Below, one piece after another: positions 8,140-30,879 of a DNA stretch of 32,000 nt (its first letter is position 1; every line of letters begins with the position of its first letter). A program made the translations under genes and the position numbers. The stretch comes from Nitratidesulfovibrio vulgaris str. Hildenborough (GTDB lineage: Bacteria; Desulfobacterota; Desulfovibrionia; Desulfovibrionales; Desulfovibrionaceae). The stretch spans positions 3,300,001 through 3,332,000 of the forward strand of contig NC_002937.3 of NCBI RefSeq assembly GCF_000195755.1, in the 5' to 3' direction. The notes below the pieces were generated by a model. It did not search any database, had not been told where the DNA came from, and worked only from the letters and a program-made list of their open reading frames with translations.

Positions 8140-8229
8140 GCCAATCCACACCCCGTCCCGGCGTACCGCCCGACCACCGCGCACACCTGCGAGGCGGTGC
8201 GACCGTAACCCCGCATGGGGAGGAACACG

Positions 8230-11121
8230 ATGACACTCAAGCGCAAGCTCATGGTCGGATTCATCCTTGCCCTGTTCGTGACCTGCACTCTCATAGCCGG
8301 AGTCAACTGGTACTTCGCCCACGACGGCATGAACGGCATCGGCGACACTGCAGTGGAAGCCATGAAGGACAGGGCACGCGGGCAGCTTGAGAGCATTCGC
8401 AGCGCCAAGGCCCTGCACATCGAAGACCTGTTCCAACGCATCCGCAACCAGACACGCACGCTGGCAGAGAGTCTCACCGTCCGTGAGGCCGCAACGACAC
8501 TGAGTGCGGCCTATTTCACGGTGCAAGGCGAGACCACTGGCGCGCTCGACGCCAAGGCACTGCGAGGCAAGCTGACCGAGGACTATGCCGGGGCGAACTA
8601 TCTCGCCAACCCGACCTTCGCCACCCATGCCCGCACCGCGAAGGGCTACGCCCCCCGTCCTGCGGAAACGTACCTGCCGAAAGATGCCAACGGCATCATC
8701 CTGCAGGCGATGTACGTGCACCCTTCGGGCAACCCCAACCCGCTGGGCGAAAAGCACCGCCTCGACGCCAACCCGCTGGCGTCCACCTACAACACCCTGC
8801 ACCGCAAGTACCATCCCATACTGCGCAACTATCTGACGACGTTCGGCTACTACGACATCTTCATCATCGATGCCGCCAGCGGCGTCATCGTCTATACGGT
8901 CTTCAAGGAGAAGGACTACGCCACCTCACTGCTGACGGGCCCCTACCGCGACACGGGGCTGGGCGCGGTCTTTCGCGAGGCGGTGGAGAACGGACGCAAG
9001 GGACGGCGCGACGCCGTATCCATCTCCGACTTCGCCCCCTACGAACCCAGCTACAACGCTCCGGCGGCCTTCATAGCAGCACCGGTCTTCGACGACCGGG
9101 GAACATGCCAGGCCGTGCTGGCCTTCCAGATGCCCGTGGACAACATCGACCGCATCATGACCTCGAACGGACGCTGGCAGGAGGTGGGGCTTGGCACCAC
9201 GGGTGAGACCTACCTCGTGGGCCCCGACATGCACCCGCGTTCGAAGCTGCGCGCCGCCTCCGGGGCATCGGACGAGGTCGTCGTCGACAGCGAGGCGGCA
9301 CGCAAGGCCCTCGGTGGCGAGTCGGGCACGGCCACCATCAGGGACTACCGCGGCAAGAACGTCCTCGCGGCATGGCAGCCACTGCGTCTGGAAGGTCTCC
9401 ACTACGGCCTCATCGCCGAAATCGACATCGACGAGGCCCTCCTTGCCGCCAGCAAGATAACCGCCGCACGACAGGGTGCCGAAGCGCGCACGCTCTGGGG
9501 CACGCTACTGGTGCTCGCCCTCGGCACGCTGCTCGGGTCGGGCATCGCCATAGCGCTGGTGGGCGCTCTCTCCAGACCGCTTCAACGGCTACAGGTCTAC
9601 GCGGGAGACGTGGCCGCGGGCAACCTCGACGCGCGCCCCGAAGGGCAGTACCCGGCCGAACTCGACGCCATGCGCCACTCCATCGAGAGCATGGTGCAGA
9701 ACCTGCGTATGCGCATCCATGAGGCTGACGCCAAGGGCATGGAAGCCGCCGACAGCGCACAGGCGGCACAGGCCGCGCTGGACAAGGCCCGGGCATCCGA
9801 AACCCGCATCAAGGGCCTCATGGAACGCATGACCGGGGCGGCAGGCAAGGCCCGCAGCGTGTCGGAACACGTCTCACGTTCCATCAACGACCTCACCGCG
9901 CAGGTGCACACCATCACGCAGGGCGTCGAGACGCAGCGCCACCGCATGGACGACACGGCGCAAGCCATGGATACCATGCGCACCATGGTCTCCGATGTGG
10001 CTGACAATGCCCGGCGGGCGGCGGAACAGGCCGACCTTTCACGTGGGCACGCGCAGCAGGGCGCCTCGGGAGTGGGCGAGGCCGTGGCCTCCATCGGTCA
10101 GGTCCGCGAACGCATCGAACGCCTCAACACCGCCATGGCCCGCCTCGGTGAAGAGGCCGACAGCATCGGCAAGGTCATGTCCGTCATCTCCGACATCGCC
10201 GACCAGACCAACCTGCTGGCCCTCAACGCAGCCATCGAGGCGGCAAGGGCGGGGGACGCCGGGCGCGGGTTCGCCGTGGTGGCCGACGAAGTGCGCAAAC
10301 TCGCAGAGAAGACCATGCAGGCGACAGGCGAGGTCGGCAGTGCCGTCACGCGCATACAGACCCACACCCGAGACAACATCGCCGCCGTTGAGACAGCCAT
10401 GCGCGAAGCCACAGCGTCGGCGGACGCGGCGACGGCATCGGGCCGGGTCATGGACGACATCGTCTCCCGCGTGGACGAGACGGCGGGCATGGTGCAGTCC
10501 ATCGCCGCAGCCAGCGACCAGCAGGCCGCGGCCGCGACCATGGTGGGGCGCAACGTGGAGGAGGTGAACGCCATCGCAGGTGACACGGCCGCCTCCATGA
10601 GCCACTTCGCAGGCACACTGGAGGACATCTTCTCGCAAGTACAGGAACTGTTCTCCATGATCGAGGTCATCAGCACCGGCGAAGAGGGGGTATCGGTACT
10701 GGCCGATACGGGTGACGCGGATGTGCTCGTGAAATGGTCCGAAGACCTCGCCAACCTGCCGAGCATCGATACGCAGCACAAGCGTCTCGTGGACTACATC
10801 AACGACCTCTACCGGGCCGCACGACGCAGGGACATGGACAAGGCACGGGAGGTGTTCGACGCGCTCAAGAACTACGCCGTGGAGCATTTCGGGTACGAGG
10901 AGAGGCTCTTCGCAGACTATGCCTACCCCGAAGCGACACGTCACAAGGAGATACATCGCCGCTTCGTCGAGACCGTTCTCAAATGGGAGAAGCAACTGGC
11001 TGCCGGAGACCCGGAGGTGGTGATGACCACACTGCGCGGACTCGTCGACTGGCTGGTGAACCATATCATGAAGGAGGACAAGAAGTACGAGGCGTACTTG
11101 CGCGAACGCGGAGTCTCCTGA
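8230..11121 (+). CDS. dcrH: methyl-accepting chemotaxis protein with a periplasmic double-Cache-like sensor, HAMP, MCP signalling domain and a C-terminal hemerythrin domain
   Basis: The track ORF starts at 8215, but ATG 8230 ([17 protein letters not shown]..., TM1) follows GGGGAGGAA. A ~400-aa periplasmic region precedes TM2 ([27 protein letters not shown]) and a HAMP domain. The MCP hairpin core is [43 protein letters not shown]. The last ~130 aa carry the hemerythrin ligand pattern H...HxxxE...HxxxH...HxxxxD ([36 protein letters not shown]). Confidence 0.92.
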
Positions 11122-11610: not shown

Positions 11611-13434
11611 ATGTGCGGCATCATCGGCTACGCCGGTCATCGTCCCGCCGTTCCCGTCGTCATCGAAGGTTTGCGCCGTCTCGAATACCGCGGATACGAC
11701 TCCGCAGGCGTCGCCTTCGTCCAGAATCGCGAACTCAATACCGTCCGGGCCGAGGGCAAGCTCGCGGCCCTCGAAGAGCGTCTCGCCGGATGTCCCAACA
11801 CCGTGGCCACCACGGGCATGGGCCATACCCGCTGGGCCACCCACGGCGTACCGGCCGAACGCAACGCCCACCCCCACAAATCCAACGACGGTTCTCTCGC
11901 CATCGTCCACAACGGCATCATCGAGAACTATCAGGAGCTGAAGAACGACCTGCTCGCCAAGGGCTACGTCTTCCACTCCGAGACCGACACCGAAGTGCTG
12001 GCGAACCTCATCGCCGAGGGGCGCAAGCATACAGCCACCACGCTCGACGCCTTCGCATGGGCGCTGCGGCAGGCCCACGGAGCCTACGCCGTGGCCCTCA
12101 CCACCCCCGAAGAACCCGACGTGCTCTACGCCGCCCGTCTTTCGGCACCGCTCATCCTCGGTGTCGGCACGGGTGAGAACTTCGTGGCCTCCGACATCCC
12201 CGCCTTCCTGCCCTACACCCGCGACGTGGTGTTCCTCGAAGACGGCGAACTTGTCCGCCTCGACGCCCATTCGTGGAAGGTCATGCGCATCGCCGACCTC
12301 TCTGCGGTCGACAAGCCCGTCCACCACATCCAGTGGGACATGCAGGCCGCCCAGAAGGGTGGCTACAAGCATTTCATGCTCAAGGAGATCTTCGAGCAGC
12401 CCAAGGTCGTCACCGACTGCCTCGCCGGCCGCGTGGACTGGGCCCGCGAAGAGGTGACCCTGCCTGAACTCGCCGCCCTACCCGTGCCGAAGCGCCTGCA
12501 CATCGTGGCCTGCGGCACCTCGCTGCACGCAGGCATGTGGGGCAAGCACCTGCTCGAGAGCTGGGCCAAGGTGCCGGTGAGCGTGGAGATTGCCTCCGAA
12601 TTCCGCTACCGCGACATCCTCCTCGACCCCGAAGACATGGTGCTCGTCATCAGCCAGTCGGGCGAGACCGCCGACACGCTGGCGGGCCTTCGCATCGCCC
12701 GCGAGAAGGGTGTGAAGGTGGCGGGCCTGTGCAACGTGGTGGGGTCGTCCATCGCCCGTGAGGCCGATGCGGTCATCTACACGCAGGCGGGGCCCGAAAT
12801 CAGCGTGGCATCCACCAAGGCCATGTGCAGCCAGATGGTGCTGCTCACCCTGCTGGCCCTCTACTGGGGCCGCCGCAAGGCCACGCTCGCCGACGATGTG
12901 CGCCACGAGGCCCTCTCCGCCCTGCGCAAGCTACCGGGGCAACTCGAGAGTGCGCTCCCCGGCATGCGTGACGAGGCGCAGCAACTGGCCCGCACCTACT
13001 CCAAGGCGCGCAGCTTCTTCTACCTCGGCCGTGGGCACTGCTTTCCGCTGGCCCTCGAAGGTGCCCTCAAGCTCAAGGAAATCTCCTACATCCACGCCGA
13101 GGGCTATGCCTCCGGCGAGATGAAGCACGGCCCCATCGCCCTCATCGACCCGGAGTTCCCCACCTTTGCCCTCGCCCTCGCCGACGACCTCTTCCCCAAG
13201 GTGAAGTCGAACATCGAAGAGGTGCAGGCACGACGCGGCAAGGTCATCGCCCTGACCAACCCCGGTGTGGAAGTGCGCGTCGACAATCCGTGGGTGGTGC
13301 CCGCCGCATGGGGCCCGCTGGCGGCCTTCATCGCCTTGCCCGCCCTCCAGCTTTTCAGCTACGAGGCGGCAGACTACCTCGGCAAGGACGTCGACCAGCC
13401 TCGCAACCTCGCCAAGAGCGTGACGGTGGAATGA
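11611..13434 (+). CDS. glmS: glutamine--fructose-6-phosphate aminotransferase (isomerizing)
   Basis: The track ORF starts at 11470. The real start is ATG 11611, giving the obligatory MCGIIGY N-terminal nucleophile, and it follows AAGGAG at 11596-11601. Two SIS domains are present, and the protein ends with the canonical NLAKSVTVE. Length is 607 aa. Confidence 0.96.
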   Translation: MCGIIGYAGHRPAVPVVIEGLRRLEYRGYDSAGVAFVQNRELNTVRAEGKLAALEERLAGCPNTVATTGMGHTRWATHGVPAERNAHPHKSNDGSLAIVHNGIIENYQELKNDLLAKGYVFHSETDTEVLANLIAEGRKHTATTLDAFAWALRQAHGAYAVALTTPEEPDVLYAARLSAPLILGVGTGENFVASDIPAFLPYTRDVVFLEDGELVRLDAHSWKVMRIADLSAVDKPVHHIQWDMQAAQKGGYKHFMLKEIFEQPKVVTDCLAGRVDWAREEVTLPELAALPVPKRLHIVACGTSLHAGMWGKHLLESWAKVPVSVEIASEFRYRDILLDPEDMVLVISQSGETADTLAGLRIAREKGVKVAGLCNVVGSSIAREADAVIYTQAGPEISVASTKAMCSQMVLLTLLALYWGRRKATLADDVRHEALSALRKLPGQLESALPGMRDEAQQLARTYSKARSFFYLGRGHCFPLALEGALKLKEISYIHAEGYASGEMKHGPIALIDPEFPTFALALADDLFPKVKSNIEEVQARRGKVIALTNPGVEVRVDNPWVVPAAWGPLAAFIALPALQLFSYEAADYLGKDVDQPRNLAKSVTVE

Positions 13435-27875: not shown

Positions 27876-27924
27876 CCCGCTTGGGAAATCCTTAACTTAC
27901 CTTTGTGAAGGAGGTAGTTCGATC

Positions 27925-28314
27925 ATGAGGAAACTGTTTTTCTGCGGCGTACTCGCCCTTGCCGTAGCCTTTGCGCTGCCGGTTGTGGCCGCTCCCAAGG
28001 CCCCTGCCGACGGCCTGAAGATGGAAGCCACCAAGCAGCCCGTGGTTTTCAACCACTCCACCCACAAGTCCGTGAAGTGTGGTGACTGCCACCACCCCGT
28101 GAACGGCAAGGAAGACTACCGCAAGTGCGGTACCGCCGGCTGCCACGACAGCATGGACAAGAAGGACAAGTCCGCGAAGGGCTACTACCATGTCATGCAT
28201 GACAAGAACACCAAGTTCAAGTCCTGCGTGGGTTGCCACGTTGAAGTGGCCGGTGCCGATGCCGCCAAGAAGAAGGACCTCACCGGCTGCAAGAAGTCCA
28301 AGTGCCACGAATAG
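27925..28314 (+). CDS. cyc: periplasmic tetraheme cytochrome c3 precursor
   Basis: GAAGGAGG lies 10 nt upstream. The signal peptide is [22 protein letters not shown]. The mature sequence [35 protein letters not shown]... has four heme sites (CGDCH, CGTAGCH, CVGCH, CKKSKCH). I recognise it from memory as D. vulgaris Hildenborough cytochrome c3. Confidence 0.97.
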
Positions 28315-28337
28315 GCAGTACAGACTGACGCATTTAC

Positions 28338-28370
28338 GGGCCGCCTTTCGGGGCGGCCCTTGCATTTTCG
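28338..28370 (+). terminator. rho-independent terminator after cyc
   Basis: GGGCCGCC (28338-28345) pairs with GGCGGCCC (28352-28359) across a 6-nt loop, followed by TTGCATTTTCG. Confidence 0.75.
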
Positions 28371-28491
28371 CCCCGCCATTGTGTATCCTGCATTGGATAG
28401 ACACCGGATTTTCCGTAAGGTTCGGGAACTCGGCGCGGTAGACCGCCCCCCCGATCATCGGCCCGCCCACCTTTGCCACTTCGAGGCTGCC

Positions 28492-30507
28492 ATGACTCCG
28501 CAGGAAGCTAACCGCCCACAGCCCGGCGACGACATCATCGAGCTCACCGACATCATCGAAAAGGGAACCGTTCCCGCTGCGGCGGATGCGGTCGATTTCG
28601 ACAAGGAGCTCGAAGACCTGTTCGCCGACAGCGACATCGAGGCGGCCATCTCGAACCTGAGCCTGCCTGATGAAGCGCCTTCTCCGGCAAAGGCTGCGGT
28701 ACAGGAACCTGCCGATACGGGGCTCGACAGTGACATCGACGCTTTTCTGGACGCACTCGACGGCCCCGGTCATGCCGCCCCTGAGAACGTCGCGCCCAAG
28801 CTTGCCCAGCCGACGCCCACTCCCGGCGGCCGCCCGGTGAATCCTGACGAACAGTTGCAGATGCCCGACATGTCGGACATGGACAGCCTCCTCGAACAAC
28901 TCGACGCCCCCGCCGCCACCAAGAGCGCAGGGAACATCGAAGACCTCGATGCGGGCGACCTCGATGCCCTGCTGGACGACATCCTCGGCGGTGCACCTGC
29001 AAGCCCGAAGGCTGCGACGATGACACCGCCCCCCGCGACCGAAGCCGAGCCTGCGCCCATGAGCCTCGACGACCTCGACGCACTGCTCGACGCACCTGTT
29101 GCGCCTGCTGCGCCTGCCGCACCGGAACCTGCTGCCGAACGGGCACCCGGTACTGCGACCATGAGCCTCGACGACATCGACGCGCTGCTCGACACCCCTG
29201 TCGCGCCCGCTACGCCTCCCGCACCGGAACCTGCTGCCGAACGGGCACCCGGTACTGCCGCCATGAGCCTCGACGACATCGACGCACTGTTCGACGCACC
29301 TGTCGCGCCCGCTGCGCCTGCCGCACCGGAACCTGCTTCCGAACCGACACCCGGCACTGCCGCCATGAGCCTCGACGACATCGACGCGCTGCTCGATGCC
29401 CCTGTCGCGCCCGCTGCGCCTGCCGCACCGGAACCTGCTTCCGAACCGACACCCGGCACTGCGACCATGAGTCTCGACGACATCGACGCGCTGCTCGATG
29501 CACCTGTCGCGCCCGCTGCGCCTGCCGCACCGGAACCTGCTTCCGAACCGACACCCGGCACTGCGACCATGAGTCTCGACGACATCGACGCGCTGCTCGA
29601 TGCACCTGTCGCGCCCGCTGCGCCTGCCGCACCGGAACCTGCTGCCGAACCGACACCCGGCACTGCCGCCATGAGTCTCGACGACATCGACGCACTGCTC
29701 GACGCGGCACCGATGCCTCCCGCACCTGAAGAGGCCATGCCAGCGCACGACACCGCCGCAGAAGAGACCGTCATCGCTGCGATGCCCCCCGTGCAGGAGG
29801 AACCTGTCGCCGCACTCGCAGCAGAGACGATGGCAGTGGCAGCCGCTGCCACCGCCATGGCACCGCAGGAACCTGTCATATCTCCGGCCTCGGGCCCGAT
29901 GTCTGCCCCGGTCATGGATGCGAACGCCCTTGAGGGGCTGCTTTCGCGTCTGCAAGCCCTTGAGGACGAGGTCGCCGGGCTGCGTGCCACCGTGGTGCAT
30001 GGAAATGAAGTGACAGCGGGGCTCGAAGAGCGTCTCGCGGCGCTCGATGCGGAGTCTGCCGTCGCCGCATCGCCCGAACCGGCACCCGCTGCCGAGTCCG
30101 CCCCTCCGGCTGAACCGCTGATGCCCGACGCGGACGCCCTCGGGCGTATCCTGTCCGAGATGCTGGCGGAAGGGCATCCGGCCATGGAATGGCTTGTCGA
30201 GCAGGTGCGGGCAGTGGTCATGAACGGCATGTCCGATCATATCGCAAGCGCCGTCGAACGTGCCGTGGAGCAGACGACCGCCCCGATGCGTGACGCACTC
30301 TCCGGGGTCGACGCCACCGCCGAAGGCATGGTGGAACTCGACAACCGCCTGAGCAGCCTCGAAGCCACCCGCATCACCGCAGACGACATCGCCAAGCTCG
30401 AGTCCGCCCTGCGCGAGGCCCTGCGCGACGACACCGACAAGGCTGCGGCTGCGGCTGCGGCCCGGGTCATCCGTCAGGAAATCGCCGCGCTGGCCGAAAT
30501 CCTCTAG
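28492..30507 (+). CDS. highly acidic Pro/Ala-rich repeat protein (671 aa) with ~10 'D-[ILM]-D-[AS]-[LF]-L-[DE]' motifs and a C-terminal helical/coiled-coil region; no TM or signal peptide
   Basis: The track ORF starts at 28360 inside the cyc terminator. The first ATG beyond the terminator is 28492 (MTPQEANRPQPGDDIIELTDIIEKG...). The reading frame is maintained through 6.3 copies of a 102-bp repeat. The C-terminal ~190 aa are predicted helical (LEGLLSRLQALEDEVAGLRATV; ...AARVIRQEIAALAEIL). The RBS is weak, so the start is uncertain. Confidence 0.75.
   Translation: MTPQEANRPQPGDDIIELTDIIEKGTVPAAADAVDFDKELEDLFADSDIEAAISNLSLPDEAPSPAKAAVQEPADTGLDSDIDAFLDALDGPGHAAPENVAPKLAQPTPTPGGRPVNPDEQLQMPDMSDMDSLLEQLDAPAATKSAGNIEDLDAGDLDALLDDILGGAPASPKAATMTPPPATEAEPAPMSLDDLDALLDAPVAPAAPAAPEPAAERAPGTATMSLDDIDALLDTPVAPATPPAPEPAAERAPGTAAMSLDDIDALFDAPVAPAAPAAPEPASEPTPGTAAMSLDDIDALLDAPVAPAAPAAPEPASEPTPGTATMSLDDIDALLDAPVAPAAPAAPEPASEPTPGTATMSLDDIDALLDAPVAPAAPAAPEPAAEPTPGTAAMSLDDIDALLDAAPMPPAPEEAMPAHDTAAEETVIAAMPPVQEEPVAALAAETMAVAAAATAMAPQEPVISPASGPMSAPVMDANALEGLLSRLQALEDEVAGLRATVVHGNEVTAGLEERLAALDAESAVAASPEPAPAAESAPPAEPLMPDADALGRILSEMLAEGHPAMEWLVEQVRAVVMNGMSDHIASAVERAVEQTTAPMRDALSGVDATAEGMVELDNRLSSLEATRITADDIAKLESALREALRDDTDKAAAAAAARVIRQEIAALAEIL
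29059..29705 (+). repeat. 102-bp in-frame tandem repeat, 6 full copies plus a 35-bp partial seventh
   Basis: Copies start at 29059, 29161, 29263, 29365, 29467, 29569 and 29671. Each encodes the 34 aa MSLDD[IL]DAL[LF]D[AT]PVAPA[AT]P[AP]APEPA[AS]E[RP][AT]PGTA[AT]. Copies 4-6 differ at only a few nucleotides. Confidence 0.97.
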
Positions 30508-30702
30508 AAGGCCTTCGACCGGCATACGGGGCTCGAGCCTCGACGACCGGAACACATGGTGGTATGAGACCCGAAAAAAACGGGAGAGGGGCTTGCAGGT
30601 TTCTTTCCCGCTTTACCCGTCCGGTCTTGCCGATGTCCGGTCAGGACCATTCCCCCACGGGCGGGTTTTCTTTTTCCGGCACGCCAAAACGACGAGGCCA
30701 CA

Positions 30703-30879
30703 GTGGACAAGGTACGTAAAGAAGCCCTTCAGGTGACCAAGGAGATTGTGGTCAAGTTCATCGAGACCCAGCGCATCTCGCCAAGCAACATCGGCGAGGT
30801 CTTTCCTTCCATCTACGGGGTCGTTCTCCGGACTCTGGTCGAGGACGGCGTTGCCGACAGCGAGGACGAAAAGGCGTGA
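30703..30879 (+). CDS. 58-aa conserved-looking small protein; resembles the N-terminal oligomerisation region of Ros/MucR regulators but lacks the zinc-finger half
   Basis: This ORF is below the track's length cutoff. GTG 30703 lies 5 nt after GAGG. It encodes VDKVRKEALQVTKEIVVKFIETQRISPSNIGEVFPSIYGVVLRTLVEDGVADSEDEKA. Codon usage is gene-like (about 78% G/C at third positions; AAG, GAG, ATC and GTC preferred). The stop TGA (30877-30879) overlaps the GTG (30876) that opens the ubiE ORF. Confidence 0.55.
   Translation: MDKVRKEALQVTKEIVVKFIETQRISPSNIGEVFPSIYGVVLRTLVEDGVADSEDEKA

Follow-up and report, generated by a model that had tools for sequence, protein, structure and literature searches.

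The gene at 28492..30507(+) in a 32,000-nucleotide stretch of the Nitratidesulfovibrio vulgaris str. Hildenborough chromosome (NC_002937.3, positions 3,300,001 to 3,332,000, forward strand; hereafter the window) consists of a 671-codon open reading frame (ORF) plus a stop codon, and is a member of a large, conserved and unnamed family rather than a peculiarity of a single genome. The encoded protein displays many copies of a short acidic-hydrophobic motif resembling the N-terminal peptide of the flagellar switch protein FliM (FliM-N). It would be best explained overall as a cytoplasmic, oligomerising, multivalent docking scaffold for a partner that binds FliM-type peptides, a reading to which we give a probability of about 40%. 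An initial annotation of this DNA had gone further, in proposing a hub or sink for phosphorylated CheY (CheY~P). Its observations on the sequence are confirmed on every point that could be checked except the linker length, and its interpretation is supported in part.

Results

Conservation and copy number of the motif

The motif was defined from 617 instances, taken from 136 representatives at most 50% identical to each other. Its logo reads D-[LF]-x-D-D-L-D-A-L-L-x-[DSE]-[LMI]-D, with key positions occupied by D in 93%, L in 81% and L in 84% of the instances, and its flanks are made of Ala, Pro and acidic residues, without alignable sequence. The homologues counted against shuffles hold 3-12 motifs each, against about 0.05 in composition-matched shuffles. 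When a slightly different pattern is applied to P0005, a near-identical protein of 671 residues, 11 matches are found, against about 0.05 in 500 shuffles, none of which exceeded 2. The tandem array of the N. vulgaris gene was also compared codon by codon between its units. Five of the 11 motif codons vary in DNA, three of them only synonymously and two with a change of residue (I/L and L/F), while 11 of the 23 linker codons vary, four only synonymously and seven with a change of residue. As the motif is conserved while its linkers drift, its behaviour is that of a functional short linear motif. The initial annotation had named a core drifting as freely as the linker as the mark of plain low-complexity sequence, and no such drift of the core is observed.

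The number of units is variable. The close relatives of the protein (P0001-P0013) are 501, 535, 569, 603, 637, 671 or 705 residues long, that is, in steps of 34 residues, and 2-8 exact copies of the unit were counted in close N. vulgaris relatives. As these lengths differ by whole 34-residue units, copy number varies among N. vulgaris strains and metagenome-assembled genomes, with the proviso that some of the short length variants come from short-read assemblies, in which repeats could be collapsed. To judge from the sequences compared, the array is a recent, lineage-specific expansion.

A conserved family in Desulfovibrionales

The initial search returned only close relatives and about 14 proteins at 30-37% identity, and a profile search over 1.84 billion representatives returned 477 representative clusters at E <= 1e-3, 170 of them at E <= 1e-10. 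These 477 clusters are essentially Desulfovibrionales. A scan of one genome per species gave 60 confirmed loci, among which the specifically labelled ones are nearly all Desulfovibrionales, from the genera Nitratidesulfovibrio, Desulfovibrio, Mailhella, Halodesulfovibrio, Oleidesulfovibrio, Fundidesulfovibrio, Desulfomicrobium and Desulfonatronospira. The remaining loci belong to metagenome-assembled genomes labelled Thermodesulfobacteriota, 'Proteobacteria' or Deltaproteobacteria, with single Betaproteobacteria and Acidobacteriota labels. Mailhella, which has the gene (L014, L031), is a genus described as motile, and cluster look-ups for non-motile carriers found no named non-motile species.

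The family layout is shown by alignment A1. An invariant N-terminal element, [DE][DE]IIELTDIIEKG, is followed by a first motif conserved among the homologues (MDADIDALL), by a conserved block, V-[ND]-PDE-x-L-x-MP-x-M-x-[DE]-x-D-x-LL-x-x-L, and then by a variable number of D-[LI]-D-A-L-L motifs, a coiled coil and an invariant C-terminal element, KAAAAAAARIIREEIAAL. Written as signatures, the N-terminal element is [DE][DE]II[DE]LT[DE][LI]IE-x-G and the C-terminal one KAAAAAAAR[IV][IL]REEIA-x-L, and both are found in 136 of the 150 best representatives. Those with both signatures have a median length of 562 residues and a median of 4 motifs (range 0-13), and in most representatives some 12 residues separate the C-terminal signature from the C-terminus. 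Within the family the motifs all fall in the N-terminal 60% of the chain, with a median of 43 residues from one to the next, and the linkers between them are of variable length, rich in Ala, Pro, Asp, Glu and Ser, and cannot be aligned across the family. All members are strongly acidic, with a net charge per residue of -0.08 to -0.25. The window protein has all four features of the family, namely the N-terminal element, motifs in an acidic disordered region, the coiled coil and the C-terminal element. A profile built from the N- and C-terminal signatures alone found 8 short fragments.

One family member (P0027, at L002 8001-10436) has a doubled N-terminal module, reading 'EDILDLAELLGTG ... EIDALLEQM ... 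VDPHEQLDMTGMGDMDKLLDSL' and then a second 'DDIIELTELIEKG ...', so that the N-terminal elements behave as a duplicable cassette.

No known domain accounts for the family. Pfam and NCBIfam gave nothing beyond noise with the whole protein, its N-terminal 61 residues, its C-terminal 126 residues or two repeat units, and NCBIfam gave only SMC/Rad50-type coiled-coil matches with 44 family members. The sequence search of the PDB, which left out chains shorter than 20 residues so that FliM peptide entries could not appear, returned only coiled-coil noise with the family profile and nothing with one repeat unit. The window gene, next to cycA, is probably DVU3172. No paper was found with the putative locus tags DVU3172, Dde_3181 or Dde_3183, and a literature search on a Desulfovibrio polar organiser brought nothing relevant. 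The remark of the initial annotation that no protein of this architecture had been described holds within the literature and database searches made here.

Gene start, repeat array and protein layout

The homologues begin MTPQEANRP or MSPTDDAH at the place equivalent to the ATG at 28492, and a GAGG ribosome-binding site stands 5 nucleotides upstream of it, so that this ATG is taken as the true start. A longer alternative, from a TTG at 28360, is used by only one database entry, P0003. Long ORFs overlap the gene, among them an antisense one of 887 residues that covers it entirely (27892..30555(-)); they are treated as high-GC, repeat-driven artefacts, because homologues exist for the + frame only. 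Alanine (23.5%), proline (13.1%), aspartate (10.4%) and glutamate (8.5%) dominate the composition of the protein, whose net charge is -102.

With Tandem Repeats Finder just one array is found, at 29051-29705, with a period of 102 base pairs, 6.4 copies, 93% matches and no indels. The seven units described by the initial annotation, each opening with MSLDD[IL]DAL[LF]D, are indeed found, with starts at residues 190, 224, 258, 292, 326, 360 and 394; six of the seven are full units, followed by a Pro/Ala linker that measures 23 residues instead of the roughly 21 given at first. Upstream of the array there are four degenerate copies, at residues 39-44, 78-89, 127-137 (MSDMDSLLEQL) and 155-165. Three of these, like the N-terminal DDIIELTDIIE (residues 13-23), had been placed correctly before, and ELEDLF (39-44) comes in addition. 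With the pattern [DE]x[DE][ASDE][LFIM][LFI], the 671-residue protein holds 11 motif copies in total.

Conservation in alignment A1 is concentrated in a few elements, the coordinates of which are given in Table 1. In the N-terminal signature I15, I16, L18, T19, I22, E23 and G25 are invariant. In the LDSDIDAFLDAL copy D79, D83 and L86 are invariant, and D81, I82 and A84 nearly so. In the RPVNPDEQLQMPDMSDMDSLLEQLD block P125, D131, L133 and L134 are invariant, and V116, P118, E120, L122, M124, M127 and L137 are at least 90% conserved. Finally, A652, A653, A655, A656, R661, E663, I664 and L667 are invariant in the C-terminal signature of the protein, which ends ...AARVIRQEIAALAEIL.

Table 1. Positions in the window of the elements of the gene, its product and its flanks.
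Feature	Coordinates	Strand	Remarks
Terminator-like hairpin of the cytochrome c3 gene	28338..28359	+	9-pair stem, 8 G-C pairs, T-rich tail
Ribosome-binding site GAGG	28483..28486	+	5 nucleotides before ATG, read from sequence
N-terminal family signature DDIIELTDIIEKG, residues 13-25	28528..28566	+	alignment A1
ELEDLF, residues 39-44, weak motif copy	28606..28623	+	kept in close relatives
Degenerate copy LDSDIDAFLDAL, residues 78-89	28723..28758	+	equivalent to family-wide first copy 'MDADIDALL'
Block RPVNPDEQLQMPDMSDMDSLLEQLD, residues 114-138	28831..28905	+	motif copy with conserved upstream extension V-[ND]-P-D-E-x-L-x-M-P
Motif copy AGDLDALLDDIL, residues 154-165	28951..28986	+	in alignment A1; core GDLDALLDDIL, 155-165
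Tandem array, seven MSLDD[IL]DAL[LF]D motifs, residues 190-404	29059..29703	+	34-residue / 102-base-pair period
Long helix, probable coiled coil, residues 477-525	29920..30066	+	AlphaFold2 pLDDT 92-94 over most of helix
C-terminal helical region, residues 547-670	30130..30501	+	AlphaFold2 pLDDT ~71-95
C-terminal family signature DKAAAAAAARVIRQEIAALAEIL, residues 649-671	30436..30504	+	Ala-rich stretch, then hydrophobics at heptad-like spacing
58-residue ORF MDKVRKEALQVTKEIVVKFIETQRISPSNIGEVFPSIYGVVLRTLVEDGVADSEDEKA	30703..30879	+	overlaps ubiE start by 4 nucleotides

Predicted structure and cellular location

AlphaFold2, run with a 44-sequence alignment, predicts a mostly low-confidence chain in which each motif forms a short helix, followed by helices at residues 477-525, 547-559, 563-625 and 630-670 with a predicted local distance difference test score (pLDDT) of about 71-95. 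The disordered repeat region and the helical or coiled-coil C-terminus anticipated by the initial annotation are thus both recovered by the model. For the region of residues 477-525, sequence matches in the PDB and NCBIfam are only of the coiled-coil type, and a Foldseek search of the PDB with the better AlphaFold model found no meaningful fold match (best E = 3). Membrane segments are not predicted, as the stretch of 19 residues with the highest hydrophobicity, which is Ala-rich, has an apparent insertion energy of +3.6 kcal/mol, in agreement with the cytoplasmic location first proposed. By prediction and composition, the N-terminal 470 residues or so are shown as an acidic disordered tether. 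The C-terminal ~195 residues, with their Ala-rich, heptad-like tail, would most likely serve self-association.

Resemblance to FliM-N and CheZ-C peptides

FliM-N and the C-terminal peptide of CheZ (CheZ-C) both dock on the alpha4-beta5-alpha5 face of phosphorylated CheY; the CheZ peptide reads ..DQVDDLLDSLGF. Known peptides were scored on a position matrix made from the 617 family instances, against a control of 306,335 windows taken from ORFs outside the family in the fetched loci. E. coli FliM-N (LSQAEIDALLNGDS) scores 16.6 bits, which exceeds the highest control value (13.0) and falls among the scores of the family instances themselves (5th percentile about 16). CheZ-C scores 11.1 bits (P of about 2e-5 per window), and the repeats of the LID region of CheA, described below, score 6.0-8.4 bits. 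On these scores the resemblance to FliM-N, already put forward by the initial annotation, is real, and it is the best among the known peptide classes compared. The window protein shows the corresponding sequence pattern, an acidic residue followed by [IVL]-D-[AD]-L-L, and a helix is predicted at every copy. No FliM, FliN or CheC domain was found in it with Pfam or NCBIfam, and FliM N-termini, which were sought in the fetched loci, are not present there. Besides CheY, the N-terminus of FliM binds the MinD-type ATPase FlhG (review PMC12826062).

The same profile search also returned planctomycete proteins (P0236, P0231, P0245 and P0255) that start with a FliM-like 'MSQ[DE][DE]IDALL'. In P0236 (L071 8001-10265) about ten 'LGQDDIDALL' repeats are followed, by eye, by a hydrophobic segment that could be transmembrane and by a TPR-like tail. 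The gene is two genes downstream of a receiver-domain gene, and its locus includes genes for a sigma-70-family sigma factor (possibly of the FliA type), FliW, CsrA and an HDOD protein. These planctomycete multi-EIDAL proteins look like a second, unrelated family. By analogy, this one locus from another phylum shows that arrays of putative FliM-type peptides occur elsewhere beside flagellar and receiver genes.

The CheA name and the repeats of CheA

Two orthologues, P0003 and P0004, bear the NCBI product name 'chemotaxis protein CheA'. Genuine CheA matches carry PF01627, PF02895, PF02518 and PF01584, whereas no Hpt, H-kinase_dim, HATPase_c or CheW domain was found in the window protein at E <= 10 with Pfam and NCBIfam, nor in any of 44 family members, and pairwise BLASTP against real CheA gave E > 1. 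The family profile does match the repeat region of Pseudomonas-type CheA, at E of about 1e-6 to 1e-8, and this is the probable origin of the name. The public annotation is thus misleading, and is corrected here for both orthologues. The repeats themselves were seen in P0249, P0251, P0254 and P0258, which have 3-5 copies of I[TS]D-x-EFE-x-LLD-x-LHGKG, joined by Pro/Ala linkers, between P1 and P3. These EFExLLD repeats overlap the LID region, for which an interaction with the CheW-like protein ParP is described, and are confined to organisms containing ParC and ParP (bioRxiv 10.1101/2025.10.27.684771).

Genomic context and regulation

The gene follows cbiG, cobJ and the gene for tetrahaem cytochrome c3 (cyc3) and precedes ubiE, the cytochrome and UbiE being confirmed by Pfam. 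It had been placed initially between the terminator of the cytochrome gene and the ubiE unit. The hairpin is there, and puts cyc3 and the window gene in separate transcription units; the 58-residue ORF intervenes on the other side and, as it overlaps ubiE by 4 nucleotides, belongs to the ubiE unit. No terminator was found 3' of the window gene. Where it is found in Desulfovibrionales, the 58-residue ORF is 49-70% identical and usually lies directly 5' of ubiE, a rubrerythrin gene standing between the two in L070. It has no Pfam or NCBIfam match, and its product is probably a small protein partner in the menaquinone methyltransferase unit.

According to neighbour tblastn at 62 loci, the order cyc3, family gene, small ORF, ubiE recurs across Desulfovibrionales, with Desulfomicrobium (L057, L060, L061) and Desulfonatronospira (L043) among the genera that show it. 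The family gene, small ORF and ubiE persist together without cyc3, and cyc3 and the family gene without ubiE: ubiE is missing in L068, cyc3 in L065, L067 and L069, and both in L063 and L066. In our reading this synteny reflects a stable chromosomal region that was inherited vertically, and not a functional operon.

Two distant members are located outside this gene order. One of them (L063 / L064) is followed, one base later, by a 200-residue gene with a weak match to the SPOR domain (11670-12272), then by a signal peptidase gene, and flgF-flgG-flgA-flgH, which are rod and ring genes, lie 5 kb upstream on the other strand. SPOR domains bind septal peptidoglycan. The other distant member is followed by a VIT-VWA gene.

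In the window itself, the only chemotaxis gene seen is about 17 kb away from the gene of interest. It encodes a 968-residue chemoreceptor (8215-11121 (+)) with dCache, HAMP and MCP signalling domains and a C-terminal hemerythrin, of the DcrH type. The window ORFs that were scanned include none with a receiver domain. At 28349-28364 (+), in part within the 3' arm of the terminator of cyc3, there is a weak sigma-54-like element, CGGGGC-N5-TTGCA with 3 mismatches; as matches of that quality number 127 in the window against 136 expected, it constitutes no evidence for such a promoter.

Discussion

Proposed function

That the protein acts as a multivalent scaffold of short motifs appears probable. 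Its helical C-terminal base would self-associate, and its acidic disordered tether would display the D-[LI]-D-A-L-L copies, each an amphipathic acidic helix that would fold upon binding of the partner. Such a scaffold would concentrate, localise or buffer several copies of its partner at once, with a valency set by the number of motif copies, from 0 to 13 across the family. The IIELTDIIEKG element and the V-[ND]-PDE-x-L-x-MP...D-x-LL block would likely be separate docking sites, for other partners.

The identity of the main partner is a more tentative matter. As the motif fits the class of docking peptides to which FliM-N and CheZ-C (for CheY) and FliM/FliY (for FlhG) belong, the most likely partners would be a CheY-like receiver and/or FlhG, and a binder of FliM-type peptides of this kind is possible, on the strength of the motif comparison, at somewhat less than even odds. 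The narrower proposal of the initial annotation, a hub or sink specifically for CheY~P, seems unlikely. FlhG, a CheW-like protein or an unrelated client would be as likely as CheY~P to be the partner. One elaboration of it would be a cytoplasmic array of decoy FliM-type peptides, on an oligomerising scaffold, binding many molecules of CheY~P (or FlhG) and acting as a tunable buffer, sink or polar reservoir; it would set flagellar number or the gain of the flagellar switch, with its valency tuned over short evolutionary times by gain and loss of 102-base-pair units. We regard this elaboration as unlikely too.

Several points weigh against a scaffold for a FliM-type partner. At the Ile position of FliM the family consensus shows Leu, and the 'LSQ' prefix of FliM is absent outside the N. 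vulgaris lineage. Acidic amphipathic LL motifs also serve other partners, as do the EFExLLD repeats of CheA, which overlap the ParP-interacting region. At the loci surveyed the family gene is never in a che or fla cluster, as had been noticed initially for the window gene, its usual context across the order being cyc3, the small ORF and ubiE, and upstream patterns for sigma-28 and sigma-54 promoters occur at chance level. Finally, oligomerisation of the C-terminal region is deduced from helix prediction.

Alternative explanations

The same scaffold could serve a partner outside the FliM-type interaction with CheY or FlhG, as a general polar or mid-cell organiser akin to PopZ or HubP/FimV and not as a component of chemotaxis. 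Candidate partners would then be a CheW-like array protein, a ParA/MinD-type ATPase positioning the chromosome or the division site, or a factor of the cell envelope or of division. This explanation, which we consider possible at less than even odds, draws on the match of the family profile to the ParP-associated repeats of CheA, on the SPOR-domain (weak in Pfam) and VIT-VWA genes beside distant members, on the missing che/fla context and flagellar promoter, on a layout mirroring the established architecture of PopZ, and on the label 'FimV' given to one member by JGI. The matrix nevertheless ranks FliM-N well above the LID repeats of CheA, and to our knowledge ParC and ParP have not been reported in Desulfovibrio. 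Moreover, the similarity to PopZ is not significant, and the LysM domain, transmembrane segment and C-terminal FimV motif are absent.

A function with the neighbouring genes, as an acidic cytoplasmic escort for the very basic precursor of the periplasmic cytochrome c3 or, with the small ORF and UbiE/MenG, as an organiser of quinone biosynthesis, is suggested by the conserved gene order. It appears very unlikely, since cyc3 has its own terminator, the ubiE unit begins about 200 nucleotides after the window gene, each gene link is broken in some lineages, and vertical inheritance of a stable region explains the synteny equally well; besides, it leaves a conserved docking motif in variable copy number unexplained.

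Even less credit can be given to a plain low-complexity or slippage repeat, tolerated in a spacer protein and devoid of specific binding function. The 93% identity of the units in DNA and the copy-number differences between close strains are what slippage would give, but hundreds of distant homologues without any common linker sequence keep the motif core, motif counts are about 100-fold above composition-matched shuffles, and the N- and C-terminal signatures are nearly invariant. As for the protein being a CheA histidine kinase, the NCBI name and the profile-level similarity to Pseudomonas-type CheA linker repeats count for practically nothing against a domain content that refutes kinase identity.

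Implications

Most work on polar hubs such as PopZ and HubP/FimV concerns Alpha- and Gammaproteobacteria. Sulfate reducers have polar flagella and many chemoreceptors, and no paper was found on an equivalent of these hubs in them. The large, conserved and unannotated family described here, in which the motif and the N- and C-terminal elements can each be mutated, opens to experiment the question of which factor organises or buffers the flagellar and chemotaxis components of Desulfovibrionales. If the partner were CheY~P or FlhG, the protein would be the first multivalent FliM-peptide decoy or scaffold known to us, and a true decoy array would represent a new control of chemotaxis output, unlike phosphatases and phosphate-sink receivers. 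If the partner were another one, the family would still offer a clean bacterial scaffold of short linear motifs, with natural variation in valency.

Comparison with known systems

ChePep, in Epsilonproteobacteria, is an acidic regulator at the flagellar pole whose function reportedly depends on bulk negative charge and not on a specific sequence (PMC3143842). It has a putative N-terminal receiver motif, whereas the window protein has a specific conserved motif and no detected receiver domain; no sequence relationship was found between the two. In HubP/FimV proteins, very acidic, repeat-rich cytoplasmic regions organise ATPases of the flagellar and chemotaxis systems (FlhG/FleN, ParC) at the pole. 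These proteins also have an N-terminal LysM domain, a transmembrane segment and, at the C-terminus, a FimV motif; none of the three is found in the window protein with Pfam, NCBIfam or hydrophobicity analysis.

PopZ, the 177-residue alphaproteobacterial polar organiser of Caulobacter, is built on the same logic, with one or more short client-binding helices, an acidic Pro-rich disordered linker and C-terminal oligomerising helices. The two proteins share D-[DE]-[IV]-[IL]-E-L-T-D (DDIIELTD and DEVLELTD). The search for homology with PopZ gave an 8-residue BLASTP match at E = 1.4 and an hhalign probability of 3%; no DUF2497/PopZ match was found in Pfam with the whole protein or its N- and C-terminal pieces. 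The tail that the initial annotation had found reminiscent of PopZ does not bear out a relationship, and on present evidence the window protein is not a PopZ homologue.

The nearest architecture found is that of the CheA LID repeats of Pseudomonas and Vibrio (DEITDAEFESLLDQLHGKG, core EFExLLD), in which 3-5 acidic x-E-F-E-x-L-L-D helix motifs lie in Pro/Ala-rich linkers, in parallel with the array studied here; they sit in a real kinase, however, and the window protein is without kinase domains. CheZ offers an acidic V-D-D-L-L-D-S-L with a hydrophobic residue three positions past LL, as in the family logo, but as a single C-terminal copy on a phosphatase, the CheZ domain being absent from the window protein.

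FliM is the closest at the level of the motif. The core x-[DE]-[IL]-D-A-L-L, an amphipathic acidic helix, is common to the FliM/FliY peptide (LSQxEIDALL) and to the family. The N. vulgaris unit, [M]-S-L-D-D-I-D-A-L-L-D, also matches the preceding Leu-Ser of FliM ([M]-S-x-x-D-I-D-A-L-L) and is identical at 6 of 11 positions to residues 6-16 of E. coli FliM, LSQAEIDALLN, a count given by the initial annotation and reproduced by direct comparison. FliM carries one copy of the peptide, at the N-terminus of a folded switch protein, whereas the window protein carries 11 copies in a disordered acidic chain.

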